A stretch of DNA of 64,000 nt. It comes from a virus. The notes under the pieces are model-generated. The model made no database searches. It had not been told where the DNA came from and was given only the letters and a program-made list of their open reading frames with translations. The stretch spans positions 4,492-68,491 of the IMG/VR virus record IMGVR_UViG_3300030107_003232. One strand, 5' to 3'. Below are positions 24,165-41,102 of this stretch, piece after piece; the stretch's first letter is position 1; each line of letters begins with the position of its first letter. The position numbers and the translations under genes were made by a program.

Positions 24165-25601
24165 ATGGGGAACTACTACTCAGGCGGAACTGAATTAATA
24201 GAAAAGTTTGCTAATGACCGACATTTTGGTTCAACAATGGAATTTGCTGAGTTCTTACATACTATAGAGCCAAAGCGCAGCGTTCAAGCATGGCGCACAG
24301 CAATTACCCGATGGGTTAAGGCTGGTAATGACTTTAGGAACTATGAAGGCATTGAAGATAACACTCTTACTACTACTAAGTCATACTACGATAAAGCCAA
24401 CGATAACTATATTGTAATGTTAGAGATAACAGATGGTATGGTTGTTATTGATGGCGAAAAGCACCGTGCTATGAAAGAGGCATATTCAGATGTGGGCGGT
24501 GGCTTAACTATTGATGAGATGGCGCGCGAGTTTGAAATGCCCGCTGCTATGATTAGCGAGTATGTAAGGGCGAATAAGTGGAAACATGGTATGCAGCCAT
24601 TTACTGACGAAGAAGTGGTTGTGAATACTCTTGATGATATGGTCGAGAAATTCCTTGATATACGCAAGTTAGAGATTCTAAAGAAGGCCGAAAAGAAAAA
24701 GTGGCGGCAAATTGAAAAGGATGCCGAGCAATATACATACTTACGCGAAAGCCTCGCTGATACATTTTTTGAAGTGTTGGCCGACCATAAACCCGCACCT
24801 GTAAAAGCGCGTAAAATGGATATTGGAACGGAGTATGCTGTTGTTATCTCACCTACCGACCTACACTTTGGTAAATACGGATGGGTTGATGAAGTAGGCG
24901 AATCATACGATATGCAAGAGGCGAGCGATAGAGTTCTTACAAAGACAGAAGAACTAATTGCGAGATTGCCGAGCAAGCCGGATAAATTCTTTGTTGGCGT
25001 TGGGTCTGATTGGTTCCACGTTGATAACGACATCGGAACTACTACTAAAGGAACAGCGCAAGACATGGCTGGAACTCCCGCGCAGATTCTTATGCAGGGA
25101 TGCGAGTTAGCAAGGCAACACATTGACCTTTTGCGAACTGTAAGCGATGTCGAACTTATCTTCATGGGCGGTAATCACGATAGGCATACATCAATTATGC
25201 TTATGCTTTACTTAGAGGCATACTACAAAGAATGCGAAGATGTATCAGTTGTAGTTAGCCCGCACATCAGACAGTATGTGTCCTACGGTAATAACCTTCT
25301 CGGATTTACACACGGCGATGGTAAAGTAATGAACAAACTATCTCCTCTTATGGCGCATGAAGCGCGTAAGGAATGGGGTAATACTGTAAACCACTTATGG
25401 TTCCACGGACACTTACACCATCAACAAATGCGTGAGATGGGCGGTTGCATAATTGTGCAATTACCGAGTCTTGCTGGTGAAGACCGATACCACAGCCGCA
25501 ACGGATATTCGATGAGCCGTGCTGGTTTATCTGCTTATATGATAGACAAAGAGGCAGGTCTTATCGGTAGTTTATTTGCTCCGGTGATACATGATGAATA
25601 A
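24165..25601 (+). CDS. Calcineurin-like metallophosphoesterase with N-terminal HTH-like region
   Basis: DLHFG, GSDWFH, GNHD, THGD, GHLHH motifs. Confidence 0.85.
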   Translation: MGNYYSGGTELIEKFANDRHFGSTMEFAEFLHTIEPKRSVQAWRTAITRWVKAGNDFRNYEGIEDNTLTTTKSYYDKANDNYIVMLEITDGMVVIDGEKHRAMKEAYSDVGGGLTIDEMAREFEMPAAMISEYVRANKWKHGMQPFTDEEVVVNTLDDMVEKFLDIRKLEILKKAEKKKWRQIEKDAEQYTYLRESLADTFFEVLADHKPAPVKARKMDIGTEYAVVISPTDLHFGKYGWVDEVGESYDMQEASDRVLTKTEELIARLPSKPDKFFVGVGSDWFHVDNDIGTTTKGTAQDMAGTPAQILMQGCELARQHIDLLRTVSDVELIFMGGNHDRHTSIMLMLYLEAYYKECEDVSVVVSPHIRQYVSYGNNLLGFTHGDGKVMNKLSPLMAHEARKEWGNTVNHLWFHGHLHHQQMREMGGCIIVQLPSLAGEDRYHSRNGYSMSRAGLSAYMIDKEAGLIGSLFAPVIHDE

Positions 25602-25716
25602 ATGGACTGCGGCTAAGTGTAATTGGTGCGGGTGGGAGGCCCCCCGCATGATGTTATCTAAGGCCGAGTCAAGAGTTTGTCCTCATTGTGGAAAAAAAGA
25701 GTTGAGGCCGATATGA
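25591..25716 (+). CDS. 41-aa Zn-ribbon protein
   Basis: MMNKWTAAKCNWCG...VCPHCGKKELRPI; GGTGA SD; stop overlaps the terminase ATG. Below the ORF-track cutoff. Confidence 0.65.
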   Translation: MMNKWTAAKCNWCGWEAPRMMLSKAESRVCPHCGKKELRPI

Positions 25717-27218
25717 GTTTTAAGCAAGACTTAGCGATGGAACGGTCGCGTAGGTCGGTTAAGTATTTCTATGAATGGTTGGGCTACACATGGGGAGAGC
25801 ATATCGAAGAATGGATGGATATTTACAGCGACCGCAAAGGCGCAGAAGTTCATAGGGTCTGTGTGATTGCACCGAGAGGCCATAGTAAATCAACTACTCT
25901 TAGGGTTAAACTACTTCATCAATGTCTTTTTGAAAAGTGGAATAACGATAGACCCTTTACCTGCTGGTTAATATCTGCGAGTAAAGACACAGCGATTCGC
26001 CGTCTGCAAGAAATAAGGGATGACCTAAAGCGACACCCGCAGTTATCACGATACCTTGACCCGAAGAAGGGTAATAAAACCGAGATTCACTTTACCAACG
26101 GTGCGTGGATTATGGCGACATCTGTTGGGTCTGCAATTCGTGGTGAGCATCCCGCGTGCGTAGCATTCGATGATGTGTTGGTTGATTCTGACGAAATGAA
26201 CCCAAAGGTTCTGCAACAATGGTTTAGAAAGGCTATCACACCTATGCTTGACCCTAACTCATCTCTCTATGTTGTCGGCACGCCAATGTCTATGACTGAC
26301 TTATACCACACCGAAATGCTCGATAACTCCACATGGAAAAAGGGAGTTTGGTCTGCGATAAAAAACTATGACGAATGGAAAGCATCGGGTGAAACAATAC
26401 AACCCGTGCCGCTGTGGCCCGAACATCGCAGTCTTAACTATCTAATGGAACAGAAGCAAGCGATTGGTGAGTTGGAGTTTGCACAGGAGTTCTTATGCCG
26501 CGTGGTTGATGACGACTCATCCGTTTTTCCAAACAATCTAATTCGTAAGAATCTCGACTTAGACATTACACTTCAAACAGAAATACTACCTAACAATAGG
26601 TATGTTCTCGGCTTCGACCCATCACAGGGTTTGGGTCAAGACTACACAGTCATTGTGGTTCTTAGACAGGATGAACAGGGCTTCGTGCATTTTGTAAATA
26701 TGTGGAGAAGAAATGATTTCCCACCGGACAAGCAAGCAGATATGCTCATCGAGATGTCTAAAAGATATTCAGCGCCTATTGCCGCAGAAGACGTGGGGTT
26801 CCAGCAATTATATGACGCTCTAATACAACAGAAAGGCGCAGTAGTGGATTACAGACCGAGTAAGGTTAGTAATAGGACACTCAAGCAAGGACTTCTTAAC
26901 CGTCTGCGTGTTTGGTTTGAGCGGGAGTTAGTCTGCTTTCCTTACGGCAACGATGAAACACGAAGAATGATTGAGATTATTCTTGACGAACTATCAACAC
27001 ACGCATGGCGCGATGGCCTTATCGTTGATTTAGGCCGACATAACGACACAGTAATGGCGTTTGCACACGCCATAGACCAATTCACCTACAGGACACCTGA
27101 TATGCCCGTTGTAATGAAAACAATGAAGGGCGGAGAATGGATGGGCGGCAGCACACGCGGTTTGCCCCGTCAAAAGTCCGGTGTAGGTGGAAAAGTAATC
27201 AATAGGAGAGGATTTTAA
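25713..27218 (+). CDS. terL: Terminase large subunit
   Basis: Walker A APRGHSKST, Walker B VAFDD, VGTP motif, nuclease GFDPS...DYT, HNDTVMA. Confidence 0.95.
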   Translation: MSFKQDLAMERSRRSVKYFYEWLGYTWGEHIEEWMDIYSDRKGAEVHRVCVIAPRGHSKSTTLRVKLLHQCLFEKWNNDRPFTCWLISASKDTAIRRLQEIRDDLKRHPQLSRYLDPKKGNKTEIHFTNGAWIMATSVGSAIRGEHPACVAFDDVLVDSDEMNPKVLQQWFRKAITPMLDPNSSLYVVGTPMSMTDLYHTEMLDNSTWKKGVWSAIKNYDEWKASGETIQPVPLWPEHRSLNYLMEQKQAIGELEFAQEFLCRVVDDDSSVFPNNLIRKNLDLDITLQTEILPNNRYVLGFDPSQGLGQDYTVIVVLRQDEQGFVHFVNMWRRNDFPPDKQADMLIEMSKRYSAPIAAEDVGFQQLYDALIQQKGAVVDYRPSKVSNRTLKQGLLNRLRVWFERELVCFPYGNDETRRMIEIILDELSTHAWRDGLIVDLGRHNDTVMAFAHAIDQFTYRTPDMPVVMKTMKGGEWMGGSTRGLPRQKSGVGGKVINRRGF

Positions 27219-27466
27219 TGGCCGGACCAATGCCGAGAAAAAAAATGTATAGACATCTAATCGAAAAGTTAATCGCAAATAATTATTTTGACGATTGGAA
27301 AGCATCAACAGAAGTATGCACGCAAGTTAATGAGAGAGTGCCTGTGCGATGGACCCAACTTAACCCATCAGCAGTTCATAGGATTCTGCGAGAGTATGAA
27401 TTAGAAGAAAGGTTCATCTGGAATAACGGAGTAAAAAGTATGCTTCGTGAATGGAAAAAAATTTGA
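27218..27466 (+). CDS. Small putative winged-HTH protein
   Basis: 82 aa, coupled to terL; helix pattern like other small DNA-binding ORFs here. Confidence 0.45.
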   Translation: MAGPMPRKKMYRHLIEKLIANNYFDDWKASTEVCTQVNERVPVRWTQLNPSAVHRILREYELEERFIWNNGVKSMLREWKKI

Positions 27467-27607
27467 AAAAAAATTTCTAAAATTCCGTGTGGTGGTGGGC
27501 TTCACTCCGTCGTGCATCAAAGAAATTTATGGCGGCTTAAAATCCAAAAATTCCTATGCTTAGACGTGATTTCAAACCTCTAAGGTAGGTATGCCGCCCA
27601 AGAGGGC

Positions 27608-27631
27608 GAAGGGTGGCCGGAGCCACCCTTC
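27608..27631. terminator. GC-rich hairpin between convergent transcription units
   Basis: GAAGGGTGGC-CGGA-GCCACCCTTC, perfect 10-bp stem. Confidence 0.55.
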
Positions 27632-27649
27632 AAAGGGCTGGAATTGCTA

Positions 27650-28513
27650 TCATAGCATCGGGTTCACCCCGACCCAAGTGGTTGAATTGAATAATTCAAT
27701 TATCTCCGCGAAATTTTCAGACCTTGGGTCAACTCCACAGACAGTTAAACCGATTTCGTCAATCTCAGGAATCACGAATCGAATACGGCTTTCATCTCCG
27801 TCTTTGATTGCTGGGCATTCTTTGTCTGCCCAACCGCCCCAACAATTTCGGCGACCACAAGCACACTTGCCGTTGCTCTTGTTGTATCGGTATGCGATAG
27901 GTAGCGAGTTCTTTGAACGCTGGCTCAATGTTCTCAAGTGGCTAATGTATAACTCGCCACGATAGTTCAAGCCGAGCATTGGAACTTTAGCACCTAAGCC
28001 AAGACCAACATCAAGTTGAGGCCAATACTGAGGGGCTATGTTTGCGGTGATTACAGGGTTTGAGTAATCAAGCGGATATTCAGCGCCACAGATACCAGCG
28101 CGGCGAATTGGTCTTAGTGGGTGGTAATTACTGACCAAACAGTTTGGAACTCCGCAAGAAGGAGATGTGCAAGCATCTCTAACGCCTTCGGTTGGTGCTG
28201 TGTATCGGTGGTTCACTTCAATATCAGCGGATAGGCTTAGGTTAGTGTTTCGACCTGCTGAGTCAATCCCAAATGAGCGCTGTTGATAGTTAGTCAATTT
28301 TGCCGACTGCTCATATATTGGGTGGCCTGTTGCTGGCTGGGTCTTATTTCCGAGTTTGCCCCTTTGGACTAAGAGAGAAGGCCACCCTTCTTTTCTTAGC
28401 CTCTTTGTGGCGTTGCCTATGGTTGTATAACCATAGGTCGCCATCAATCGCTGTGCAAGTTGCACAACGACGCGTTCGTCATCAATCGTCGTATAGGTTG
28501 CTGTTGCCTCCAT
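27650..28513 (-). CDS. Hypothetical Cys-containing protein
   Basis: Long ORF with its own TTTAAG promoter ~25 nt before MEATAT; no family recognised. Confidence 0.7.
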   Translation of the reverse strand: MEATATYTTIDDERVVVQLAQRLMATYGYTTIGNATKRLRKEGWPSLLVQRGKLGNKTQPATGHPIYEQSAKLTNYQQRSFGIDSAGRNTNLSLSADIEVNHRYTAPTEGVRDACTSPSCGVPNCLVSNYHPLRPIRRAGICGAEYPLDYSNPVITANIAPQYWPQLDVGLGLGAKVPMLGLNYRGELYISHLRTLSQRSKNSLPIAYRYNKSNGKCACGRRNCWGGWADKECPAIKDGDESRIRFVIPEIDEIGLTVCGVDPRSENFAEIIELFNSTTWVGVNPML

Positions 28514-28786
28514 ATCCCTACGGGGGTTCAACATCCACCTTAAACATATCGTGATTTTTTGCTGGAATCGCAGGTTTTGAGTGGCCGCCGGACACGTTCT
28601 GACGCACTTTTGACGCGGCGAAATCGCCGTTTTTGGGCTAATTTCGCAGGTGCAATTATGGAAGTCATTTTAGGGGCCACCGCTCTTTTACTACAAATTA
28701 TTCAATACAAATTATTCAATATAAATTAAAAACAAAAAAAAGAAAATTGCCCCACCGCCAAAAAGCGGCGGCGAGGACTTTTTCTT

Positions 28787-29020
28787 TCATTCGTCAATAT
28801 GCGGGAATTGTTCCGCTATCTCCGGCTCAACCCATGTTGAACTCAGGCAATCATAACAGGTGATGAGGGTCTTGCCGCCAATAACGGTATCAGTCCTCAA
28901 CCAATAGTGAAGCCCTGTCGCATTGAAGCGACTAAGGACAACACCCCTGTTCAGGTCGGGATGCCCGACCAATTTTAGGCACTCAGTTTCAATTATCTCA
29001 GTCATTCTTTTTTCCTCCAT
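28787..29020 (-). CDS. Small hypothetical protein
   Basis: ORF between repeat clusters; GGAGG SD before MTEIIE; CxxC. Confidence 0.6.
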   Translation of the reverse strand: MEEKRMTEIIETECLKLVGHPDLNRGVVLSRFNATGLHYWLRTDTVIGGKTLITCYDCLSSTWVEPEIAEQFPHIDE

Positions 29021-29298
29021 TTTTTTCTTTAGCCTCGCCCCGCATAGTGGGGCATAGCCCCACTATAGAGGGCATCGCATTTAGACCTGTCGACTCCCTG
29101 ACCTTACCGTGCATCATCGGTTTTGTTTTACTACAAATTAAATACTACAAATTATTTACATCTATTTACTACAAAATAAAAAATACTACAAATTAAAAAT
29201 CCAAAAAACAAAAATACTACAAATTAAAGAATACAAATCCTGCACGGCTTACACCATAGGATGCGTGCGGAGGATTACTACAAATTAGATACTACAAA

Positions 29299-29559
29299 TC
29301 ATTCTGCTTCTATATTGAGAAGTTCAAGGTGCATCAATTTTTCATCAACGACCCAACCCGCATAATCGAAAGTATCGTCGTTGATATAGAAAGGGTCTGA
29401 TTCGCCCAACATCTCAATGAATCTGTTGCGTGGATATTCAACCACAGCGCCAACCACGCCGTCGCCGTTGATGTAGCGCATAAGGGAGGCTATCACCTCA
29501 TCCTTGCTATCCACGGTATCGAATAGAGAGCCGTCAATGAAGACGTTGTAGTTCCCCAT
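29299..29559 (-). CDS. Small acidic hypothetical protein
   Basis: Start MGNYNV coupled (TGATG) to the upstream micro-ORF. Confidence 0.65.
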   Translation of the reverse strand: MGNYNVFIDGSLFDTVDSKDEVIASLMRYINGDGVVGAVVEYPRNRFIEMLGESDPFYINDDTFDYAGWVVDEKLMHLELLNIEAE

Positions 29560-29678
29560 CAAGCCACCCCCGCCGCGCATTCGCAGACGATAAGCACGGC
29601 ATCTGTGCCGTTCTCGCCGCCTCCATCATAGAAGTCAATCATCATTAGGGCCTTGTTTGGGTCGCAGTCGCAAGCCAT
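29559..29678 (-). CDS. 39-aa Cys-rich micro-protein
   Basis: MACDCDPNKAL...LIVCECAAGVA; leaderless ATG after a TATAATAA box. Confidence 0.55.
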   Translation of the reverse strand: MACDCDPNKALMMIDFYDGGGENGTDAVLIVCECAAGVA

Positions 29679-29870
29679 GATGCTGAGATAGTACCCCCCT
29701 TATTATAGTCTTCGGTCTGCGATGCTGATTTACTACAAATTAATTACTACAAATTATTTAGATGTATTTACTACAATTTATTTACTACAAAGTTTTTACT
29801 ACAAATTATTCAAAACTACAAAATTTGCCCCGCCCCAAAAATTTGGGGCGAGGACTTGGGCTTTCAGATT

Positions 29871-30047
29871 TCAATATAGTTCGTCAATTGAAGACGAGTA
29901 AGTGTAGGAGTCAAGATTGATTTCAAACACATGGTTTTCGTTATCTTCTGTGAATATGGATACATACATTGTCCTGTCTTGAATCCATACTGCTGTTTTT
30001 CGGTCGTCTATATCGTCGTCAGTTATGTCGTGCTTGTTGTCCGTCAT
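29871..30047 (-). CDS. 58-aa acidic protein
   Basis: MTDNKHDITDDDIDDRK...; own CTATAAG promoter; flanked by repeat clusters. Confidence 0.6.
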   Translation of the reverse strand: MTDNKHDITDDDIDDRKTAVWIQDRTMYVSIFTEDNENHVFEINLDSYTYSSSIDELY

Positions 30048-30235
30048 ATTAGTTGCTCGTCATGGTCGGCTTATAGTCTTTGTGTTTCCTTACTACAAAT
30101 TATTTACTACAATTTATCTAATACAAATTAATTACTACAAATTATTCACTACAAAAAAAGAAAAAATACTACAAATTAAAAAATACAAAAAAGTTCGGGG
30201 AGGTAGGAGTTCGACCCCTACCCCCCTTTACGTAA

Positions 30236-30409
30236 TCATGCCTCATCGCATTCGGGGCATATATCCCCTTCTTTCCATGTATAGTTCGGGTGTAAGATTT
30301 GGTTTCCGTCATCAAGATGAACTAAATACACTATTGATTTGTTGCATATACTACACGGGTTAATAGTTCCGTATTTCCACATCATCAAATTAAACAGCAA
30401 CTCGTTCAT
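30236..30409 (-). CDS. 57-aa Zn-finger protein
   Basis: CSIC...CPEC; GGTGA SD. Confidence 0.6.
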   Translation of the reverse strand: MNELLFNLMMWKYGTINPCSICNKSIVYLVHLDDGNQILHPNYTWKEGDICPECDEA

Positions 30410-30420
30410 TTTCTCACCGC

Positions 30421-30672
30421 CTAATAATACCGTTCTTCATCGTATAGTAAATCCCAATCGTGATGCGTGCGCGGCTCTTTGTAGGCCGAGCAATTGCGAC
30501 AAGTCCAACAGGGGAAATGCTCTTTGGTTTCAAAACCTGTTTCGCCGACCCAATCCCACTCAACGCTCGTTTCCCATGAGTGTTTGTGGTCTGCACAATA
30601 GGCTTTTACGTCATAGATAACCTTCCACGACACGCCCTCATTATCCGTGTAAATGTGTTGTTTCTCGACCAT
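30421..30672 (-). CDS. Small Zn-binding hypothetical protein
   Basis: GGAGGTGA SD; CADH...CRNC. Confidence 0.65.
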   Translation of the reverse strand: MVEKQHIYTDNEGVSWKVIYDVKAYCADHKHSWETSVEWDWVGETGFETKEHFPCWTCRNCSAYKEPRTHHDWDLLYDEERYY

Positions 30673-30683
30673 GTTCTCACCTC

Positions 30684-31184
30684 CTAATAGTAAGGGCGGA
30701 ATAGCCCCTCGGATGGGTAGTATGTCCGGTAGCCGTCTGCATCGGTTGAGAAGTCATGGAAGCCGCATTCAGCCGCCATTAACGCAATATCTGCGTTGCG
30801 CTCCTCTCTCTCCCTATTAACGCGGTAATTGCGCGCATACTCGCGCTGCTTACGGTTCCTATGCTCTCTCAAGACTTCATCGTAAGAGAAGCCGTTAGCA
30901 TAGCACCATAGCCACTCTTTAGCCTGTCTGAGCGTATATACTTCAGATGTTTTGATGGAGCCTGTGTAACCGCCCTTTTGCGGGCCTTTTATGCGGAGAT
31001 AATAACCCCCATGTTTACCCGCTATTTTCGCATAACCCCTCTTAGTGGTGTCGGATTTACCCGCCACCTTTGCGCGCGCATACGCGGCCGCAAGGCTCAT
31101 TTTTTCTTCGCTTTCAACTTCTGCTGGTCCTGTTAGAAGTAGGGGCAACAGAACCCCTACAAGTAGCAATATGCCTACCTCCAT
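30684..31184 (-). CDS. Basic hypothetical protein
   Basis: Leaderless MEVGILL start after a TTATA box; alternative start MSLAAA at 31100. Confidence 0.6.
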   Translation of the reverse strand: MEVGILLLVGVLLPLLLTGPAEVESEEKMSLAAAYARAKVAGKSDTTKRGYAKIAGKHGGYYLRIKGPQKGGYTGSIKTSEVYTLRQAKEWLWCYANGFSYDEVLREHRNRKQREYARNYRVNREREERNADIALMAAECGFHDFSTDADGYRTYYPSEGLFRPYY

Positions 31185-31476
31185 ACGTCGGCGTAGGTCG
31201 TTCAAGTATAAGAAGGCATCGTCAATTTAATTTGTAGTATTTGTTTTGTAGTAAGCAGACGAGCGAAGCGATTTTACTACAAATTATTTACTACAATTTA
31301 TTCTCGGTTTACTACAAATTAATTACTACAAATTAAAAACTTACTACAAATTAAAAACTACAAAATAAAAAAGAATCCAAAAAATACTACAAATGATTTA
31401 CTACAAATACGGGCGCGGAGGGGATTTACCCCCCCGCCCCTTACGTATCACCCTACTACAAAGAATTTACTACAAA

Positions 31477-31857
31477 TCACGCATAATTTTCTGCGTTGTG
31501 TACGATTTGCATTTTCGCCATTGATAGAATACACGACATAATCATGGGAACTTTAGCGCGTCGTGTGTTGCGCGCGATGCCCCACTCTCGCTTGATTGTA
31601 GCAATAGCACCGTTGCCTTTGTTTGTAACCCTCATATTGGGCCACCGTGCTTCTTGCTCAACCATAGTGTGTATAAGCGAATAGCGCGCTGCTACGGTGT
31701 TTCCCTTGCTTGCTGCATCAACTACCATATCAACCGCCTTTCGCACACCATATACGCCGTCATTGAACTGCTGGCTCAATACGAGTTCTTTACCCTCGTA
31801 TTCAACCGTACAACATAGACCTTGACCGCATGGGCTCGCAAAATCAGTTATCTTCAG
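31477..31857 (-). CDS. Hypothetical protein, possible CTG start
   Basis: Frame is open upstream of the tracked TTG to a CTG 4 nt after GGAGGTGA. Confidence 0.55.
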   Translation of the reverse strand: MKITDFASPCGQGLCCTVEYEGKELVLSQQFNDGVYGVRKAVDMVVDAASKGNTVAARYSLIHTMVEQEARWPNMRVTNKGNGAIATIKREWGIARNTRRAKVPMIMSCILSMAKMQIVHNAENYA

Positions 31858-32086
31858 CCTCTCACCTCCAATCCTGCCTACTCCTGTTCTGCTTATGAAC
31901 CCATCGTTAATTTAATTTGTAGTAGGTATGATTCTTTTTACTACAAATTATTTTTACAGCACTAACTTAATACAAATTATTTACTACAAATTATTTACTA
32001 CAAATTATTTACTACAAAAGAAAAAAACAAAAATACCATAAAACAAAAACTACAAAAAATACTACAACTCAAAAACTACAAACATT

Positions 32087-32293
32087 TCATTCTTCTTCGC
32101 TAATTTTTGTAGCGTATAAGTCAGCAAGTTTCGCCATTCTTATAATTTCGTTAATAGCCCAATCTCTCGATTTTTTGGTATGTCGTGTATCTGTTAACCA
32201 ATCAATGAGTGCTGGAACTACATCAATCCACTTTGGTGTAATATCCACGTATTCAACAGTTCCGTCTTCGTCTTCGTAGGAGTCTTCATCCAT
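32087..32293 (-). CDS. Small hypothetical protein
   Basis: Leaderless ATG after a CGAAAGG-TTCATAAG BRE/TATA element. Confidence 0.65.
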   Translation of the reverse strand: MDEDSYEDEDGTVEYVDITPKWIDVVPALIDWLTDTRHTKKSRDWAINEIIRMAKLADLYATKISEEE

Positions 32294-32514
32294 ATTTGTC
32301 CGTATGCTGGTTTGCTTATGAACCTTTCGATTATGCCTTTTTTACTACAAATTATTTTCTTTACTACAAATTATTTACTACAAATTAATATCTTTACTAC
32401 AAATTAAAATTTACTACAAATTAAAAACTACAAAAAAGATAAGATTACAAAAATTACTACAAATTAAAAACTACAAAAAAGAAGGAGGGGCCGAAGCCCC
32501 CCCAACTTTTATGT

Positions 32515-32946
32515 TCACTCGTCGTCGTCGTAATTCCAAAGGACCGTTTCACCATCAGCGTCTTTGTAGCCGATGAAGTTCCGGTTTGTTCCGTCGTCGC
32601 CCTTTACTCTCCGGTCATCGAACTGATAGTTCATGCTAATGTTGATTCTCTTTGAGTACTTAGACTCAAACACCGTGTATTCGTAGCGTGGGTTGCCCAT
32701 CCATACCCTCACATCTTCGATGTGGCGGTCGTGTTGTGCTAAGACTGAGCGCAGTTGCGTTAGTGTTACTTCTAACTTAAGGTCTGCACCGAAGACACCG
32801 CCATAGGTGTCCTTCATGTTTAGGATAATGGTAGGCCTCCTTGTCTTCATTCTGTCGTCGTTATCGTCGTAGTAGGTTTCGGTCATTTCTGCCCGAAGTC
32901 TATCCACAAGTCGCATTAGGTTTGTAGTTCCGCGAACTTCCTCCAT
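32515..32946 (-). CDS. Hypothetical protein
   Basis: Start MEEVRG after GGTTCATAAG; followed by a GC hairpin. Confidence 0.7.
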   Translation of the reverse strand: MEEVRGTTNLMRLVDRLRAEMTETYYDDNDDRMKTRRPTIILNMKDTYGGVFGADLKLEVTLTQLRSVLAQHDRHIEDVRVWMGNPRYEYTVFESKYSKRINISMNYQFDDRRVKGDDGTNRNFIGYKDADGETVLWNYDDDE

Positions 32947-33127
32947 GGTTGAGCCACCGCACCGACCCTTATGAACCCCACGCTTTCCGGTTCTGGAATA
33001 ATTTGTAGTAATCAATACATCACCGTTTTACTACAAATTAATTTGTAGTAATCTTTCCGCTGCGCTACTACAAATTAAAAACTACAAAAAAAGTAAAAAT
33101 CACCAAATCCAAAAATTACTCCGATTC

Positions 33128-33364
33128 TCAAAAATTCTTGGTTTCGTTAAGGTATAGCCAATCGGGGTCTTCGTTGTATTTATCTCTTGAAATTAGGTAG
33201 GTTGATAATTCGCCAATGGTCTGAGATAGTTCATTTATCAACTCGTTAAGATAAGGCTTATCTGGACACATTTTTGCGTATATTCTATCAATCATCACAT
33301 TATGTAATGCGTTTACATCATCTTCTTGTAGTATCTTCCAATCGGGTTCGGCTTCTTTGCTCAT
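33128..33364 (-). CDS. Small hypothetical protein
   Basis: Leaderless ATG after TTGATAAG; flanked by repeats. Confidence 0.65.
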   Translation of the reverse strand: MSKEAEPDWKILQEDDVNALHNVMIDRIYAKMCPDKPYLNELINELSQTIGELSTYLISRDKYNEDPDWLYLNETKNF

Positions 33365-33451
33365 ATAGGGTCGTGGGGGTTGCCCCTTATCAATGCAGCG
33401 GCAGCGGCGGCATATTTACTACAAATTAATTTGTAGCAATTTTTCCGCTGC

Positions 33452-33683
33452 AAAAAAACCCGCAACGCCCCCGCTTCATCACGGCGGGGTGCGCTTAGGA
33501 GGGGCGGTGATGAACCGCGAGGGCCGAAGCCAGCACCCCGAAGGGCTTTCTCACCCAACACACCGGAAGGGCCTTACCTCCCACCTGCTAAGGTTCTGCT
33601 GGGGTCATCACAGGCGCGGGGTCTGCACTTTGTGCTTTCCGTAGCCCCCCATGAGAGGCGTTGGTTGGCCCGCCGTTGCAGAC
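33452..33683 (-). ncRNA. Candidate ~230-nt structured non-coding RNA
   Basis: GC-rich; own promoter; 5'/3' closing helix; two CUUCGG loops; U7 tract at the end; no convincing ORF. Confidence 0.6.
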
Positions 33684-33861
33684 AAACCTCCGAGTTGTGG
33701 TTTGCTTAAGAAACTTTCGATTGTATCTTTTTACTACAAATTAATTTGTAGTATGTTTGCATCTGTATTTTTACTACAAATCTTTTACTACAAATCTCAG
33801 AAGGACTTACACCCTCGGCAACGCTTCGCGCGCCTCTCGATGCCTTCGGAGGTTTTGATTT

Positions 33862-34185
33862 TCACTTTATGCCGTATCTCTTGCGCATTTCTTTCTTAGT
33901 GTGGCCCATAGCACCAACGATTTGAATAATCAATCTTAATTTTTCGTTAGCCTCGCGCCGACTCCATCCAACATAAGAGCCACTTGAACCCGTTGCAGGG
34001 TGTCGGTGTTGCCCGTATGACTTAGGGGGTGAAGCGTATATGTTCCAGCCCCGTCCGTAAGTGGGCGAACCTTCTTCAAGAATGGTTCTCCACCCTTTAG
34101 GCATTAAGCCCGCATCTATTGTTAAGGCGTGTATGCGTTCAACAATCGCCTCTGTGTCTTTTTTCGTTTCTCTCATTTTATTCAT
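33862..34185 (-). CDS. Hypothetical protein
   Basis: GGAG SD before MNKMRE; LEEGSPTYGRGWNIY motif. Confidence 0.65.
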   Translation of the reverse strand: MNKMRETKKDTEAIVERIHALTIDAGLMPKGWRTILEEGSPTYGRGWNIYASPPKSYGQHRHPATGSSGSYVGWSRREANEKLRLIIQIVGAMGHTKKEMRKRYGIK

Positions 34186-34337
34186 TCTCCTGTTGCGCCT
34201 TTTTGCGCTATTCTGACCGAACAAGCGGCGGCATATATACTTAACGGCTTTTGAGGTGTATTTACTACAAATTAATTTGTAGTAGTAGTTTTTCGGTTAT
34301 TTTACTACAAAATATGTAATACAAAATAGAATCCAAA

Positions 34338-34526
34338 TTATTCTTCGTCTTCGTATTTGTATATTTCAACGAACTCGCCGCACATAGGACAATAATATGT
34401 GGGGCTTAGTCCTGAATCGCCCATCGCGTCAATAAGTCTATCGAGTTCTTCCGATGGGGTGCAGCATTCGTAAAACGGTGATGTACCGCTGTGTAGCAAA
34501 TAATAGCGTGGTGTGTATTTCGCCAT
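34338..34526 (-). CDS. Small Zn-ribbon protein
   Basis: H...ECC...YYCPMCG; leaderless after CTTAAATA. Confidence 0.6.
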   Translation of the reverse strand: MAKYTPRYYLLHSGTSPFYECCTPSEELDRLIDAMGDSGLSPTYYCPMCGEFVEIYKYEDEE

Positions 34527-35001
34527 GAATCGCAGACATGGTAGGGGTATTTAAGGCTGTCGTTTCATTACTACAAATTAATTTGTAGTATTGGTCGGGG
34601 CCGTTTTACTACAAATTAAAAACTACAAAATACTTACTACAAATTAAAATCCAAAAATCAAAATCCGAAAAATTACTACAAATTATTTACTACAAATTAA
34701 ACTTAGTGCAAAAAGTAAAGCGGGTGTTGTGAATTACATCGAGTGCAAAAACAAAAGTGGGTGCAAAAAGTGCAGCAGGTGCGAATGACGCAGTAGGTAT
34801 CTGACGCTTTACTACAAATTATTCGGGAGAGTGCTGTTTCCAAACTATTATATAGTATGACTACCTCACGCATGGGTCGCGTAATATCGCGGCTATATAT
34901 TTTTCTTATTTTACTACAAAATACTTACTACAAAACATGGTTGGAAATAAGAGAGTGCTACACCGTCGCATTGATATAGTAGTGGGTTGTCGGATGGTTT
35001 A

Positions 35002-35205
35002 ATGGCGAACCGATACATCAACAACCTACCCGACCTATGCACCGACATTCTCAACGAGATGTATGAGAATGGATTGAGAGAGATTAACAGCACTTGCGGC
35101 GACGAGAATGCCTGTAATCTCACCGTGAATCAACTTCACTTTATCCGCAAGATACTCTATAAGCGTGGCTTCGTCGTGAGAGATATTGAGGAGGTGGTCG
35201 CATAG
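35002..35205 (+). CDS. Small hypothetical protein
   Basis: First plus-strand gene after the divergence point; start MANRYI. Confidence 0.6.
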   Translation: MANRYINNLPDLCTDILNEMYENGLREINSTCGDENACNLTVNQLHFIRKILYKRGFVVRDIEEVVA

Positions 35206-35240
35206 ACCTACACGCACGCATCGAACAGAAGAAGGCCGAC

Positions 35241-35813
35241 ATGGAGAATGCCCGTTTAGGCATGGCTCAAGGCATCAAATACTCATCGAGGTCATTGGGG
35301 GGCCACACCACCCAATACCGCCGTCTATGCCGCCTTGCAGGTATCAAAATTGACCTGCCCGAAATCAAGGCCATAAAGCCCATCGGCAAGCCTTGCCGCT
35401 ACAAAGCCTGTAAGGGCCGCAATCATGCCCTTCACGGTGAAAAATGCCCTATCGCATCAGCGCGAGGCAAGACCGGAGGCAAGTCCGGCGAAGGCGATTC
35501 AAAGAGGCGCAACGGTGAAGCAAATGGCCGCTACATTGACGGGCGTAAAAATGCCGTCAAGAAGCAATTGATTTCTCAAGTTATTGTCGGTCAAAAAATC
35601 AACAAGACCGCCCGCGAAATCCTCAACATCAATCCGATTACATGGCTCGATTCAGCCATCACAACCGCCGCAGTAGCGGGTATGCTCGGTGGCGTGCGTG
35701 GTGTCTGTTCCGGTTGCTCTCAATCAATCCCTGCGATTCAGGCACGCAAGATTCACCGTGCCGACATCACACAGAATCCGGCAAGGGTGATATGCGACGC
35801 TTGCGAAGCATGA
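35241..35813 (+). CDS. Basic Zn-finger protein, putative DNA-binding
   Basis: C..C..H..C cluster, GEANGRYIDG motif, CSGC...CDAC. Confidence 0.65.
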   Translation: MENARLGMAQGIKYSSRSLGGHTTQYRRLCRLAGIKIDLPEIKAIKPIGKPCRYKACKGRNHALHGEKCPIASARGKTGGKSGEGDSKRRNGEANGRYIDGRKNAVKKQLISQVIVGQKINKTAREILNINPITWLDSAITTAAVAGMLGGVRGVCSGCSQSIPAIQARKIHRADITQNPARVICDACEA

Positions 35814-35850
35814 TAAAAAAACTTATAAAAAAAACAGGAGAGGACAAAAT

Positions 35851-36111
35851 ATGAACAAAAAGCAAATGAGCGCCGATGAAGACTTTTTACAGTATGCTCG
35901 CAATGATATCGAGAGGCAGATTGCGCTCGGTCAAATGTATGCTATTGATGAAGACCCAAAGCCCGAACATTGTAGTGAAGATGGGCATTGGAACGATGGA
36001 GAGAACTTCTATACTATACTCAATCTATGGGGGCAATACCACTACGATGAAACAAAGGCAGAAGAATTACTCTATAAAATGTTCAAAGAGGAATATCCTC
36101 AATACTTATGA
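35851..36111 (+). CDS. Acidic hypothetical protein
   Basis: 86 aa; motif at -55 and a TATA box. Confidence 0.7.
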   Translation: MNKKQMSADEDFLQYARNDIERQIALGQMYAIDEDPKPEHCSEDGHWNDGENFYTILNLWGQYHYDETKAEELLYKMFKEEYPQYL

Positions 36112-36184
36112 AATGACGGCAAAGAAGATGACGCTTGCGAGGAATAAACGATAGATTCATAAAAAAAAGAAAAGAGGAATAAAT

Positions 36185-36604
36185 ATGACGAGAAGACAAA
36201 TGGGCGCACACGGAGAAATCTGTAAGCGCGTAAGTGGAAAAATAATGATGACTGTTAGGCCACAGCCCGAAGTATTAACGGCTGAGGATTGCGCGATGAT
36301 ACTCGGCTATCGGTGTTTAGGTGGTTGCGGTGGCGGATTCATAGGCGAGCCTAAAACGACCGAACACGGCTTTAGAAGCCCCATAACTCAAGATGCGGTC
36401 GAGGCCATAGCATACTACGAGCGTAAGGGCAAATTAACGCAGAAAAAAGCCCTGCGTTTGTTATCCGACTCATGGGTGCTAACCAATTACACAAATTACA
36501 CCGACATGATAGAGCAGTTCGATGAAGACAATTGGAATCACCGAGCCATTCGGGCATGGGTGCTTAGGGTTTTCCCGAAGTTCTCAACAGGGGTGATTGA
36601 ATGA
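36185..36604 (+). CDS. Hypothetical protein
   Basis: 139 aa; motif at -55. Confidence 0.7.
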   Translation: MTRRQMGAHGEICKRVSGKIMMTVRPQPEVLTAEDCAMILGYRCLGGCGGGFIGEPKTTEHGFRSPITQDAVEAIAYYERKGKLTQKKALRLLSDSWVLTNYTNYTDMIEQFDEDNWNHRAIRAWVLRVFPKFSTGVIE

Positions 36605-36795
36605 AAGTATTAGAGAATGGAATGTATAATGGCGCGTGCTTTGACGGCGAGCGATTTAATGCCGAGCATGATTGGTATGTCGAATCATCGGAGATTGATT
36701 TTGACGGCACTAATTGGGTTCATGTTGCAGTTATATTGTGTTGCTCGGATTGCGACAAAAAAATAGAAACGGATTATTCGTGGGATGTGGAATGA
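36601..36795 (+). CDS. Small acidic Zn-binding protein
   Basis: Overlapping start; C...H...CSDC. Confidence 0.55.
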   Translation: MKVLENGMYNGACFDGERFNAEHDWYVESSEIDFDGTNWVHVAVILCCSDCDKKIETDYSWDVE

Positions 36796-37056
36796 ATGAG
36801 AAGCGAAGATGTATGGTATGGTTCAGACCCATGTATTGATGAGGACGAATTGCCCTCAAGGGTTTTCGACCACGATGTATGCCCCGAATGCGACAAGGCC
36901 ATGCCCGACCAAGACTTAGCGGAGTTTGGTATCGAGGAGTGCGATTGTGTCGAATGCGATGGCTGCGGCGAATGGAAATCCTTTGAAGACTTCTGTAATG
37001 TATCAAATATATGCGATTCATGTTATGAACACGATGACGCTTGCGAGGGCGAATGA
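36796..37056 (+). CDS. Cys-rich acidic protein
   Basis: Several CxxC pairs. Confidence 0.6.
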   Translation: MRSEDVWYGSDPCIDEDELPSRVFDHDVCPECDKAMPDQDLAEFGIEECDCVECDGCGEWKSFEDFCNVSNICDSCYEHDDACEGE

Positions 37057-37090
37057 AAGGATTTAAGAGTCAAGGATAGGTGGAGAAAAT

Positions 37091-37315
37091 ATGGGCAATA
37101 CATGGAAAAGCCGACAACCCGCAAGGGATAAAGACGCACTAAAAAGAATACAGGCACGTTATGACGAGTGGAAATCACAGTTTAGCGATGCTATTCCTAA
37201 TCGTGTAGGTACGACCTACAAATGGAATGAGGCTAAGGTCAAGAATTGGTTTGAATCGTTGCCTCGCACAATTGCAGACCGAGAGAAGGCATTTGTAAAG
37301 GAGATGAAAGAATGA
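37091..37315 (+). CDS. Hypothetical protein
   Basis: Motif at -55; 74 aa. Confidence 0.65.
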   Translation: MGNTWKSRQPARDKDALKRIQARYDEWKSQFSDAIPNRVGTTYKWNEAKVKNWFESLPRTIADREKAFVKEMKE

Positions 37316-37485
37316 GCAAGAAGAAGTTTATTTATCGTAAAATTAAAGTCTTTGAATTAGAGTTTGAAGCATGGTCGAGAGCGCACGCAGAAGAAATGCT
37401 TGAAGATGGTTATTTGATTTACCACGACTATGAAATGGAATGTAAAGAGGATAAAGAAGTGATTGTGTCGAAGGTGATTCGATGA
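37312..37485 (+). CDS. 57-aa hypothetical protein
   Basis: MSKKKFIYRK...; ATGA overlaps at both ends; below the ORF-track cutoff. Confidence 0.6.
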   Translation: MSKKKFIYRKIKVFELEFEAWSRAHAEEMLEDGYLIYHDYEMECKEDKEVIVSKVIR

Positions 37486-37640
37486 GCAACATGAGTTATA
37501 TTAGATTTGAAAATACCTTTAGCGACCTTGAGGATTGTTATTACAATTGGGATGATGACGACATATCAGAAAGAGAAGAAAGGTGGCGAAAGAGATTGTT
37601 GGAATTATGCGAGTCAATCGTTCAATCTTATGGGGAGTGA
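37482..37640 (+). CDS. 52-aa phage-type hypothetical protein
   Basis: MSNMSYIRFENTFSDLEDC resembles the recurrent phage 'MsNMSYcRFeNT' proteins; GGTGA SD. Confidence 0.65.
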   Translation: MSNMSYIRFENTFSDLEDCYYNWDDDDISEREERWRKRLLELCESIVQSYGE

Positions 37641-37827
37641 TGAAGAATGGATGAATATACGAAAGTATTTGATGATGTCGTTCAAGCATTGGTTGGTTTG
37701 AGAGATTCAAGGTTCATTACGCCGCTGCTAACAGAAGAAAAAACTATTCAAGGTTGGATAGACTTTTGTATTGACGCTTGCGAGGACTAAACAATAACCT
37801 TAAAAGAAAACACGGAGAGGAGTAAAT

Positions 37828-38037
37828 ATGAGCAAAGGCACATACAACAAAGAATGGACAGCATACTACGAATACCTTGAGTTCTTGAGGCAATCGGGCG
37901 CGACTAATATGTTCGGCGCAGCACCTTATCTTCAAGACCACTATGGCCTTGAGAAGCGCGAAGCAGAACTTGTTTTGCATTCGTGGATGAAGAACTACAA
38001 TGCACTATTAGAAGACGGGGTGATTTCAAATGATTGA
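37828..38037 (+). CDS. Conserved viral hypothetical protein
   Basis: YLEFLRQSGATNMFGAAPYL motif recurrent in phage small proteins; motif at -55. Confidence 0.75.
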   Translation: MSKGTYNKEWTAYYEYLEFLRQSGATNMFGAAPYLQDHYGLEKREAELVLHSWMKNYNALLEDGVISND

Positions 38038-38314
38038 ACCAATAATTACAGTAAGTAAAGAGATGAAAGAAGCACTACAATATGCTCTTTCAGATATGAG
38101 AAGCCCAAAGATAATGTGTAATTATTTGATTGAGAGATTTCAAGACCAAGCGATAAATGAATGCTCATGGAAATGTCTTTACATATCAAAGAATTACATA
38201 GACATAATCAAAAATTATGAGGTCATTGAGAGGCGGTTTGGGTGCGACGGCGAGTTCAGAAGTAAATTAAACGAACTTCTCAGACAGGAAACATTAGAAG
38301 ATTGGGGGTTTTGA
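38030..38314 (+). CDS. Hypothetical protein
   Basis: GGTGA SD; overlapping start. Confidence 0.6.
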   Translation: MIEPIITVSKEMKEALQYALSDMRSPKIMCNYLIERFQDQAINECSWKCLYISKNYIDIIKNYEVIERRFGCDGEFRSKLNELLRQETLEDWGF

Positions 38315-38315
38315 A

Positions 38316-38753
38316 ATGAGCGAACCGAAATTATATCGAGATAAAATATCAACAGATAGCAGCACACCAACCCACCAATTGCGATATGCAACAGGCTGGC
38401 TAACCGATTATATGCACCACGATAATAACGGGATTAGATACTATACCCCCGAAACTGTGAAGGCTGTAATCAAGAACCTACACGCCGATGTGTCCGATGC
38501 ACAGGCCGCCATATTGAACGACAAATCAACGACGCAAGTTATCTTTGAGATAGGCCGAATGAAGCCCGAAGACGAAAAGCCGATTTGGGCTCATTCATCC
38601 GATAGGGGTTTTTGGATAGGCGACAGAACTAATCTTAACCTAAAAATACTTCAGATGCGAAAGGGGTCGGTTGATGCTATACATTGGCCGAAAGCCCGCG
38701 ACGCTTGCGACGACAATTCCCAAACTTTATTAGAGAGGTTTGAGGAGGAATAA
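38316..38753 (+). CDS. Hypothetical protein
   Basis: 145-aa ORF in operon. Confidence 0.65.
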   Translation: MSEPKLYRDKISTDSSTPTHQLRYATGWLTDYMHHDNNGIRYYTPETVKAVIKNLHADVSDAQAAILNDKSTTQVIFEIGRMKPEDEKPIWAHSSDRGFWIGDRTNLNLKILQMRKGSVDAIHWPKARDACDDNSQTLLERFEEE

Positions 38754-38755
38754 AC

Positions 38756-39745
38756 ATGACGAGCAGAAACTTGCTACCATCATACGCCCTCTTAGGGCAA
38801 GAAGCCAAAGGAACGACCGCCGAAGAAGTCCTTGCTAACGCAGGGCTTGACTTTGAGGTGAAGAAAGCCCCATCGGGCTACATGAACCCTCAAGGGGATT
38901 TCGTAAGACATAGAGGACATACCATTACCTACCGTGCCGATACAGGCGCAGCATTGGGTAGCGTATCATCCTCATACGAGGTATTTCAGAACCATGACGC
39001 ATTGAAAGTCTTTGACCGATTAGTAGGCGAAGGCCGAGCCGAATACGACCGCATCGGTATGATTGACGGCGGGCGAAAGATGTTTGCGAGCATGAAGATG
39101 CCCGAAGGATTCACCGTAGCGGGTTGGGATGATATAGACCAATACCTATACATGATTACATCTCACGATGGTTCAACAGGCGTGCGATATATCCCTGCGA
39201 ATGTCCGTGTAGGATGCACTAATCAATTCGCTTATCTTGACTCTATGCTAAAGCAAGCGGGCATCAATCCTCGCGTGCTATCAAGCCGCCACTCAAGGTA
39301 CATTGAAGGTCGCATAGAGCAAGCAATTCAGGCGTTGAATGTCGTTGATGTCCTCAACGAGCAATTCGCTAACACAGCGGGCGAACTCATGCAGGTCGAA
39401 CTCGATGTAGCGGGTCGAACCGAATTTTACATCGACGCTATGGGCCTCAAGACTGACGAGAAGTTGGTTGATAAGGTGGAGAATCCGTTTGGTCTAACCA
39501 CACGCGGCAACAACACCCTCACACGGCTTCAAGAGTTAGAAGATACCGCTCTCGGATTCGATGACGGCGACATCAACAGCGCATGGGGCGCATTCAATGT
39601 GATTAGCGAATATCTCGACCACGCATGGGTCTATGACCGCAAGGGCGAGAAGGTCAATCAAAAGAGAGTCGAATCGGCCCTACTCGGAACAGGAGCAAGG
39701 CAGAAGGACAAAGCATGGGCGGCAGCCGCACGGTTGGTCGCCTAA
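38756..39745 (+). CDS. DUF932 / TIGR03299-like phage-plasmid protein
   Basis: AGLDFEV, YRADTGAALGSVSSSYEVFQN, GGRKMF, TSHDGS, RVGCTNQ, SAWGAFNVISEYLDH. Confidence 0.85.
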   Translation: MTSRNLLPSYALLGQEAKGTTAEEVLANAGLDFEVKKAPSGYMNPQGDFVRHRGHTITYRADTGAALGSVSSSYEVFQNHDALKVFDRLVGEGRAEYDRIGMIDGGRKMFASMKMPEGFTVAGWDDIDQYLYMITSHDGSTGVRYIPANVRVGCTNQFAYLDSMLKQAGINPRVLSSRHSRYIEGRIEQAIQALNVVDVLNEQFANTAGELMQVELDVAGRTEFYIDAMGLKTDEKLVDKVENPFGLTTRGNNTLTRLQELEDTALGFDDGDINSAWGAFNVISEYLDHAWVYDRKGEKVNQKRVESALLGTGARQKDKAWAAAARLVA

Positions 39746-40644: not shown

Positions 40645-40647
40645 GAA

Positions 40648-41099: not shown

Positions 41100-41102
41100 A
41101 GA

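Follow-up and report, generated by a model that had tools for sequence, protein, structure and literature searches.

Arrays of a short repeated word probably form composite regulatory linkers between the shuffled small genes of a presumed archaeal tailed virus

We analysed a 64,000-nucleotide stretch (here, the window) of the virus record IMGVR_UViG_3300030107_003232, which is 68,491 bp long and 99% complete according to CheckV. At 28690-34936 the window holds a block of small minus-strand genes whose intergenic spaces are occupied by clusters of a short word with the core CTACAAA. The reading that we prefer, at a probability of roughly 60%, is that these clusters are composite linkers of one promoter class, each joining a terminator, an operator array and a promoter. 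They are probably bound by F0, an orphan protein encoded at the end of the block, and would double as homology for the shuffling of the genes between them, here called cassettes. The architecture itself is real and family-wide and has apparently not been described before.

The word ACTACAAA has 70 exact matches in the window, compared with a mean of 2.31 in 100 dinucleotide-preserving shuffles (standard deviation 1.42, maximum 5). All but three fall within 28690-34934, where 58 copies lie on the plus strand and 9 are inverted on the minus strand; the three outside copies (15890, 25222, and 47515) are at chance level. A longer word, TACTACAAATT, occurs 43 times in the 68,491-bp record (36 forward, 7 reverse), every time within window positions 28689-34820 and nowhere else in the genome, and its reversed control has no copy in that record. 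A preliminary description of this DNA, made from the letters alone, had reported some 55 to 60 same-orientation copies confined to the block, and both the number and the confinement hold in the genome-wide count that it had proposed. Its statement that the motif is absent from probable genes and from outside this 6.3 kb needs only slight correction: one 8-mer copy (32921, minus strand) lies inside a probable gene and all others are intergenic, while 7-mer copies fall within genes at 29546 and 33326. The repeat consensus is tTACTACAAAttA, and 24 of the 61 gaps between successive plus-strand copies measure 14 nt. Four 20-nt palindromes are perfect (33030, 33733, 34264, and 34570) and a fifth, at 33418, has one mismatch, matching the dimers first described. 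The copies make up 12 to 14 clusters, the exact total varying with the treatment of two single copies (28690, 34811) and one pair (34913).

Contigs from three public runs with 99% or higher identity match the window arrangement, and contigs that reproduce the window break at the triple 14-bp tandem in cluster 6 (31971-32014 or, as delimited within the cluster, 31983-32018). The same architecture occurs in independent contigs of other samples. The arrays are thus not assembly artefacts, the possibility that the preliminary description had named as fatal to its own proposal.

Read in the minus-strand sense, the intergenic spaces follow one order: a stop codon, usually a GC-rich hairpin, T-rich direct copies, inverted copies, a box resembling a B recognition element and TATA box (BRE/TATA-like box), and an ATG. 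Each linker has 1 to 9 direct copies, all pointing in one direction within a T-rich stretch, and 1 to 11 copies of an 8- to 12-nt word in all. Eight promoters carry one or two copies in the opposite sense, and in five units these form a head-to-head palindrome. The BRE/TATA-like box (TTCATAAG, ACTATAAG, CTTAAATA, and similar) is found 14 to 26 nt past this dimer and is followed by the ATG after about 22 to 27 nt; the block genes are probably leaderless at this ATG. At the other end of the linker, strong hairpin-plus-T sites stand on the minus strand directly after stop codons at 28750-28776, 29828-29853, 30198-30226, and 32484-32503. Terminator-like sites number 13 in all, against 6.6 expected, and runs of at least five T are more frequent on the sense strand than on the antisense strand (30 versus 13); the window-type unit itself contains a T3 run only.

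We treat the virus as a tailed virus of an archaeon because sigma-70-like promoters are not enriched in the block (12 sites versus 15.7 expected), because TATA-like boxes lie about 22 nt before start codons, and because of its gene set. The latter includes a portal protein, a large terminase (TerL), a family B DNA polymerase, an RFC-like clamp loader, a group II (thermosome-type) chaperonin, a PD-(D/E)XK nuclease, and an ERCC4/HhH nuclease. Among GenBank phages, the closest named TerL is only 25% identical, which gives no confirmation of the label "magrovirus." Metagenomes are the only source of knowledge on viruses that infect the abundant, uncultured marine group II-like archaea, and we know of nothing reported on their gene control.

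The head-to-head dimer has the form CTACAWA-N4-TWTGTAG, with 11 bp, or one helical turn, between the half-site centres. This 4-bp spacer is found in all dimers of the window (5/5) and of the related loci L204 (12/12), L164 (7/7), and L220 (5/5), and in most of those in L150 (8/12) and L027 (9/16), where the remaining dimers have a spacer of 3 or 8. The letters of the spacer differ among lineages, and tail-to-tail pairs are nearly absent. Across 11 loci, 68 of 80 dimers have the start of an open reading frame (ORF) within 160 nt downstream; 17 of these 68 end exactly 39 to 40 nt before the ATG and give the consensus dimer, cgAAA, TTCnTAA, about 22 nt, ATGGA. Archaeal activators of the Ptr2, GvpE, and TFB-RF1 type bind just upstream of the BRE; repressors usually cover the TATA box or start site. 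By this comparison, the dimer directly upstream of the BRE would occupy the usual activator position.

The plus-strand genes to the right have a word of their own. There, GACGCTTGCGAGG is present in 10 copies with at most two mismatches (0.9 expected), all on the plus strand between 35796 and 48636 and one per intergenic space, and in 8 of 10 cases it ends 41 to 43 nt before the ATG. It is also found in the related loci L148, L214, and L215. This word appears to be an upstream element for a second class of promoters, those of the replication-gene block, and, since it keeps the same register upstream of the ATG, the virus would have at least two promoter classes, each with its own word.

To place the arrays within the virus family, we used a TerL profile, which retrieved 483 related IMG/VR stretches; the best 80 of the 483 were analysed, and 33 terminase-anchored loci with at least 3.5 kb downstream made up the tally set. 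Arrays of 26 to 77 copies are present in 12 of the 33, and the other 21 loci have 0 to 4 copies. Pattern scans added eight further contigs with 38 to 77 copies of the same core each, and a metagenome-wide scan for two phased copies returned mostly single chance matches plus seven further real arrays. De novo word counts identified terminase-downstream arrays built from four other words (AACTACAAAAC, AACTACATAAC, CCCTACAAAA, and GCCTACAAAAC), and the same layout recurs in the family with the words ACTACAAAAC, ACTACATAAC, CCCTACAAAA, and GCCTACAAAAC. The core CTACAWAA is common to all five word variants. In L164 and L210 the units run as in the window, from hairpin through T-rich direct copies, inverted copies, and TATA-like box to ATG.

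Conservation is concentrated in the motif. In blocks orthologous with L012, the relative closest to the window (L010, L011, and L182 denote this contig as well), identity is 94.6% in the motif core (229/242), 86.3% in other intergenic DNA, and 83.7% in coding sequence. We favour a protein-binding role for the sites because the 4-bp dimer geometry is kept in five variants, because the register is fixed, and because the core is conserved above the intergenic DNA around it.

The candidate binder is F0, a cysteine-rich orphan protein of 294 aa with a probable start at Met8, encoded by the last gene of the block (27650-28534, minus strand). It is the only large protein common to all array-bearing modules. 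An F0-family ORF was detected by a hidden Markov model (HMM) in 12 of 12 array loci and in none of the 21 array-less loci, and all ACTACAWA-type modules carry both F0 and a 39-aa CxC...CxC protein. In CCTACAAA-type modules, a distant homologue of F0 with 320 to 390 aa (hhalign probability 92.5%, E value 5e-7, 168 columns) is encoded on the other strand between the terminase and the array. On the terminase tree, the joint F0/array label needs at least three changes. This co-occurrence is suggestive, not proof, of F0 as the array-binding factor. The family is narrow, with 20 representatives among 1.84 billion proteins, and its members have 7 to 11 cysteines and a pI of 5.8 to 9.2; further scans for F0 loci returned only contigs already in the set. 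Upstream of F0 there is a TATA-like box and no dimer, so F0 could be made independently of the sites.

A natural replacement of the module narrows the search for a virus-encoded factor. L148 matches the window at 92% identity over 22322-27500 and at 91% over 35208-35858, and its TerL is 97% identical in the tree alignment, but window positions 27500-35208 are replaced by an unrelated 5.3 kb that has no CTACAWA enrichment and no F0. A virus-encoded factor should therefore lie inside the module. The protein p190 (35241-35813, plus strand) was rejected as the binder, as a 95% identical copy is present in the site-less L148. A packaging role for F0 as small terminase subunit (TerS) was likewise rejected, since L148 retains its TerL without F0.

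Among array-bearing relatives, the content between the linkers varies. A map of minus-strand ORF families over 11 loci shows linkers kept and genes between them differing or reordered, the outcome that the preliminary description had proposed as support for cassette exchange. Compared with the window, L012 lacks the 77-aa gene and has replacements for the 93-aa, the 78-aa, and the 57+83+166-aa cassettes, with one 349-aa gene standing in for most of the last. L082 carries the 166-aa family at another position; family F31 fills slot 2 in L059 and slot 7 in L085; F30 follows F2 in L027 and F22 in L012; and the 62-aa cassette and its neighbour have opposite orders in L012 and the window. The homologous segments that the window shares with L012 terminate at cluster edges or stop codons, apart from two ends that fall inside genes. 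Of 119 distinct block ends collected from ten arrays, 44% are no more than 15 nt away from a copy, compared with 26% of random positions, and 71% are no more than 60 nt away, compared with 46%; the pairs compared are not independent. Other contigs from the three public runs share only clusters with the window and diverge beside them, and one run contains a joint from 31339 to 33452 (seen in contigs, not reads). In these metagenome contigs, both the variant joints and loose contig ends are located at clusters. Such joints that skip cassettes are only a hint toward mini-circles.

From this layout we infer binding, the sign of regulation, termination, and expression timing as follows. Each linker would consist of a predicted terminator (GC hairpin and oligo-T), a one-way array of half-sites with the core CTACAAA, and a promoter, and each orphan cassette would be a transcription unit of its own. 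A sequence-specific protein would bind as a dimer to the head-to-head site next to the BRE, and the same protein would load onto the direct copies too, whose one-way orientation would also put T-runs on the transcript strand. The whole block would come under one factor, most likely F0, with a host factor as the alternative; that this factor activates is a guess from the dimer position. The plus-strand block would use its different upstream word in the same register. At the linkers, recombination enzymes of the virus would exchange, delete, and reorder cassettes, each moving with its promoter and terminator; the PD-(D/E)XK and ERCC4 nucleases encoded in this genome count in favour of the overall reading. 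We propose exchange because a dozen near-identical linkers are available in one genome and in co-infecting relatives. The preliminary description had offered a protein-loading platform and a recombination scaffold as two alternatives; each has support, and they are not exclusive. Its further suggestions, that these genes are the earliest ones and that the arrays work as a signal for DNA entry, partition, or antagonism of silencing, are not supported.

The strongest competitor, which we regard as possible though clearly less probable, keeps the same architecture and assigns binding to a transcription factor or chromatin protein of a Poseidoniales-like host, with F0 as a linked passenger. The core CTACAWAA and the 4-bp spacing stay constant while F0 falls to 22 to 30% identity across lineages or becomes detectable by profile comparison only. 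A constant core would fit a shared factor that evolves slowly, the flanks being homogenised genome by genome, and F0 has no recognisable DNA-binding domain. However, L148 has a near-identical backbone, presumably infects a similar host, and has no copies at all, and none of the 33 loci has an array without F0. The 20-nt palindrome was searched for in 185,579 species representatives and is in no archaeal genome among them, looser host sites not being part of that search; its five single matches are all in bacterial metagenome-assembled genomes and say little about host sites.

Could the arrays instead be a dedicated exchange system? Here F0 would be a site-specific or site-stimulated recombination protein driving integron-like excision and insertion. 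Cassettes are indeed shuffled, deleted, and reordered, with end points enriched at copies; variant joints occur in metagenome contigs, palindromic sites flank cassettes, and F0 accompanies every array. Against this, neither a tyrosine recombinase (PF00589; controls positive in 14 of 14 genomes) nor a serine recombinase (PF00239) was matched in the 68.5-kb genome, and F0 has no known nuclease or recombinase motif or fold. The register of the dimer with TATA-like box and ATG is unneeded by a recombination site, and the unrelated GACGCTTGCGAGG keeps the same register within a block that is not shuffled. Breakpoints are also scattered over linkers and genes, with no single crossover point. We consider this explanation unlikely. 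Only slightly better placed, and still doubtful, is a broader speculation in which F0 and the CTACAWAA arrays form a self-contained, horizontally moving "cassette platform" of marine archaeal viruses, with F0, a novel type of protein acting on specific DNA sequences, both activating cassette promoters and stimulating exchange at the arrays. If true, the virus would carry an integron-like gene-capture device without a known recombinase.

A third explanation asks less of the direct copies, which would be a slippage-amplified, AT-rich satellite without a protein partner, adding at most oligo-T termination signals and spacer DNA, with only the promoter-proximal dimers mattering. The 14-bp units do lie in tandem, and one orthologous cluster differs between the window and L012 by exactly one such unit. 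The spacing depends on the lineage, and the direct copies are oriented for a T-rich transcript and interleaved with T-runs. Yet the core of the direct copies is intact at the 94.6% given above, all 12 lineages sampled have retained arrays of 26 to 77 copies even though their proteins diverge deeply, and a window-type unit, with its T3 run only, would be a poor terminator by itself. We think this quite improbable.

Least probable by some distance is a role as replication-origin iterons, centromere-like partition sites, or packaging or DNA-entry signals; of these, partition and DNA entry had also been raised in the preliminary description. The many one-way repeats, the block start 1.5 kb from the large terminase gene, and the block end at the strand switch (minus-strand genes give way to plus-strand genes, read from left to right, at about 34.5 kb), where the cumulative GC skew turns with a minimum at about 34-36 kb, would fit; but L148 keeps the terminase (TerL 97%, flank 92% DNA identity) and the start of the plus-strand block without any copies, which makes an origin or packaging role unlikely, no Orc1/Cdc6 (PF09079) or ParB (PF02195) domain was matched in the genome, and the sites are spread at fixed promoter distance over at least 12 clusters instead of one locus.

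Several observations weigh against our preferred reading of F0-bound composite linkers. The distance from dimer to TATA-like box is not constant within the window (14 to 26 nt), and at four promoters only direct copies occur. The spacing of the direct arrays also differs by lineage (14, 15, or 25 to 30 nt), which counts against strict cooperative phasing. Promoters, start sites, and terminators are predictions. The co-occurrence of F0 and arrays may reflect physical linkage and not function, as the tally includes near-duplicate loci (L166/L204, L205/L208, L214/L215, and L015/L155) and at least three transitions only. F0 has no match in Pfam, PHROGs, or PDB profiles and no usable match in the ESM Atlas. 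Its AF2 models are poor (predicted local distance difference test [pLDDT] 43.6, then 57.7), Foldseek returned no match at an E value of 0.001 or below, and the fold hint is weak (zinc-ribbon-like, best VIA-align Z score 3.0, residues 118-160). The enrichment of breakpoints at copies is moderate and some breakpoints are intragenic, and the high conservation of the clusters could stem from recent gene conversion rather than selection.

The individual units of the block are given here by ascending coordinate. All cassettes are on the minus strand, and the clusters are on the plus strand apart from cluster 9, which has no strand. Cluster 1 (28690-28727) consists of a perfect direct copy and two degenerate ones immediately beyond the first strong hairpin, and the 77-aa cassette beside it (28787-29020) belongs to no known family and is absent from the closest relative (L010/L012). 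Cluster 2 (29130-29300; 7 direct copies) adjoins a two-gene cassette (29299-29678), in which a 93-aa gene is replaced in relatives and the 39-aa CxC...CxC gene (29559-29678) is kept in nine ACTACAWA-type modules. Cluster 3 (29732-29824; 5 to 6 direct copies) follows the hairpin at 29828-29853 when read in the sense direction and is next to the 58-aa cassette of family F18 (29871-30047), common to the window and L012. Cluster 4 (30092-30177; 4 to 6 direct copies) adjoins the hairpin at 30198-30226 and a cassette of three genes (30236-31184) encoding proteins of 57 aa (with a Cys4 motif), 83 aa, and 166 aa, the last with a membrane helix at its N terminus. Cluster 5 (31229-31478) has 9 direct and 2 inverted, promoter-proximal copies (31231 and 31245); the cassette that follows (31477-31850) encodes about 100 aa from an uncertain start and is found in L059, not L012. 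Cluster 6 (31914-32084), with 6 direct copies and 1 inverted copy, includes the triple 14-bp tandem.

Beyond it lies the most widely shared cassette (32087-32293), a 68-aa member of phrog_22670, a family of unknown function, whose slot differs among relatives. Cluster 7 (32344-32479; 8 direct copies), next to the hairpin at 32484-32503, is the one that differs from L012 by a 14-bp unit, and the 143-aa cassette (32515-32946) is common to L012. Cluster 8 (33000-33090) combines the palindrome at 33030-33049 with a further inverted copy (33002) and 2 direct copies. The 78-aa cassette (33128-33364) has an unrelated gene in its place in L012, and cluster 9 (33418-33437), the one-mismatch palindrome, precedes the TATA-like box of the 78-aa cassette by 23 nt. 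Past the ORF-less cassette at 33449-33695, cluster 10 (33733-33796) has the palindrome at 33733-33752 and 2 direct copies. A basic protein of 107 to 120 aa (33862-34185) comes next, a cassette that follows the 68-aa family in L059. Cluster 11 (34264-34327) has the palindrome at 34264-34283 and 1 to 2 direct copies, and the cysteine-rich 62-aa cassette (34338-34526) is the first gene of the block. Cluster 12 (34570-34698) has the palindrome at 34570-34589, 14 nt before the TATA-like box, and 5 direct copies. Outlying plus-strand copies at 34811, 34913, and 34927 (34811-34936) are found between the divergent gene blocks, ahead of the plus-strand genes.

All 12 cassette proteins that were scanned stay below the Pfam cut-offs, and PHROGs matches are to families of unknown function only. 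Many otherwise unrelated cassette proteins, in the window (28787-34526) and in relatives, share a Met-Glu start and a short acidic tail (EEE, DDDE, EDEE, or EEY). The ORF-less cassette (33449-33695, minus strand) is GC-rich and about 250 nt long, with a TATA-like box of its own and a closing T7 run. A structured RNA is not supported here, as there is no Rfam match and the fold is no more stable than that of shuffled sequence (z = +0.46). A stretch of L164 matches the final 68 nt of the cassette at 96% identity, and in run X4 the cassette is joined to another cluster at high contig depth. L164 itself has 555 nt without an ORF between two dimers (9636-10191), with a TATA-like box and no Rfam match; the predicted start, ACTCGGAGG, resembles that of the ORF-less cassette of the window.

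Two further words were seen beside the arrays. Three to four copies of (A/G)GTGCAAAAA lie at 34703-34790, in the divergent intergenic region between both gene blocks, and words of this type also occur upstream of the p190 homologue in L148 and within L164 linkers; they may be the operator of another factor. The word AATCCAAA is found in window linkers at 29198, 31374, 33106, 34330, and 34648 and is not significant over the whole window (8 versus 3.9 expected). In L183, L187, L193, L194, and L197, relatives without CTACAWA arrays or F0, it is the dominant repeat (14 to 24 copies), directly after hairpins, where the sense strand reads TTTGGATT.

Elsewhere in the window, no tRNA genes were found. 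A 1590-aa protein (10232-15004, minus strand) has 13 collagen triple-helix repeat stretches (Pfam E value 1.9e-69) and a weak CBM_5_12 match, and is presumably a virion fibre. A small basic protein is encoded directly downstream of the terminase gene (27218-27500, plus strand), with counterparts in L210 (2267-2452), L217, L220, and L224; these proteins are 61 to 80 aa long and 87 to 98% identical among CCTACAAA-type relatives. It is part of the backbone and not of the array module, its stretch to 27500 lying inside the flank shared with L148.

The preliminary description knew of no named system with this layout; there are, however, close analogues among tailed viruses, as well as more distant likenesses. 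Integrons, like this block, string together small, exchangeable genes that are mostly unknown, and a palindromic element bounds each of them. Their attC sites stand at the 3' ends of genes, whereas the 18- to 22-bp palindromes of the window, putative operators, stand upstream, and their cassettes are promoterless and moved by an IntI-type integrase, whereas those of the window have their own TATA-like boxes and no integrase was found in the genome. The window is therefore not an integron. The stoperators of cluster A mycobacteriophages are short asymmetric intergenic sites in one orientation relative to transcription, bound by one phage protein; they occur as single sites genome-wide and silence the prophage. 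One-way asymmetric intergenic sites (58 plus, 9 minus) are a shared feature, but in the window they are arrayed, confined to 6.3 kb, and form dimers at promoters, and neither a repressor-like helix-turn-helix (HTH) protein, among the proteins scanned with Pfam, nor an integrase was found.

The closest system by function is that of the promoter-early stem-loops (PeSLs) of T4-type phages, as described by Arbiol et al. (2010, PMC2839356) and Comeau et al. (2014, PMC4122927). These are repeated intergenic elements made up of a host-type promoter and a GC-rich stem-loop terminator, with an AT-rich stretch upstream, and they flank small orphan genes in a hyperplastic block (PMC2839356). Relatives differ by cassette insertions, deletions, and replacements bounded by the elements, a pattern proposed to arise from homologous recombination that the virus itself carries out (PMC2839356, PMC4122927). 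The likeness to the window is considerable: promoter, GC stem-loop, and AT-rich DNA surround orphan genes that shuffle as modules. Here the host-type promoter is a predicted archaeal BRE/TATA-like box in register with the repeat, the stem-loops are the four hairpin-plus-T sites and further GC hairpins, all predicted terminators, and cassette maps and block ends place the differences among relatives at the elements. PeSLs as there described are a single motif of about 100 bp with sigma-70 promoters, whereas the window has an 8- to 12-nt word repeated 1 to 11 times plus a palindromic dimer, and neither an excess of sigma-70-like sites in the block nor T4-type homology was found; unlike PeSLs, its arrays also co-occur with a specific orphan protein family. 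The resemblance is functional, not by descent.

Among archaeal viruses, the closest known elements, and the nearest found in a full-text literature search for intergenic repeats, are those of the tailed virus HF2 (Russ, Pfeiffer, and Dyall-Smith 2021, PMC8707807). HF2 has two classes of intergenic repeats, each in one part of the genome, which carry measured promoters and are thought to be bound by class-specific viral regulators (PMC8707807). The window likewise has two block-confined classes, the CTACAAA arrays (28690-34936) and GACGCTTGCGAGG (35796-48636), with promoters predicted from sequence. As described, the HF2 repeats are single units of 58 or 29 bp (7 and 2 copies) whose positions are conserved among relatives (PMC8707807); the window instead has short words in arrays (67 copies, with units of 8 to 12 nt and 1 to 11 per space), dimers, and variable gene content. 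In the haloarchaeal myovirus HGTV-1, most left-arm ORFs are preceded by a TATA and inverted-repeat motif that its authors likened to PeSLs for regulation and shuffling, as described in PMC3950731. Both viruses thus have a block of ORFs, each preceded by an inverted repeat beside a TATA-like box; the description in PMC3950731 mentions no direct-copy arrays, associated protein family, or shuffling data. The main texts of the papers examined on marine group II viruses contain neither "promoter" nor "intergenic"; genome maps in their supplements may bear on whether the repeats have been seen earlier.

Compared with these systems, four features are new: arrays in which a short word recurs as many as 11 times in one linker, a dimer geometry that is constant across five word variants, the scale of 26 to 77 copies in each of 12 terminase-anchored modules, and a co-travelling orphan protein family. 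The block provides a second promoter class in the same genome together with a candidate trans factor in F0, and the five motif variants and one near-isogenic virus without the module make up a natural comparison set. Shuffling at linkers would explain the turnover of orphan genes that presumably act in host interaction. Regulatory linkers that serve as recombination handles, known from T4-type phages, would then also operate on a large scale in archaeal viruses, built there from short, arrayed, putative operators.

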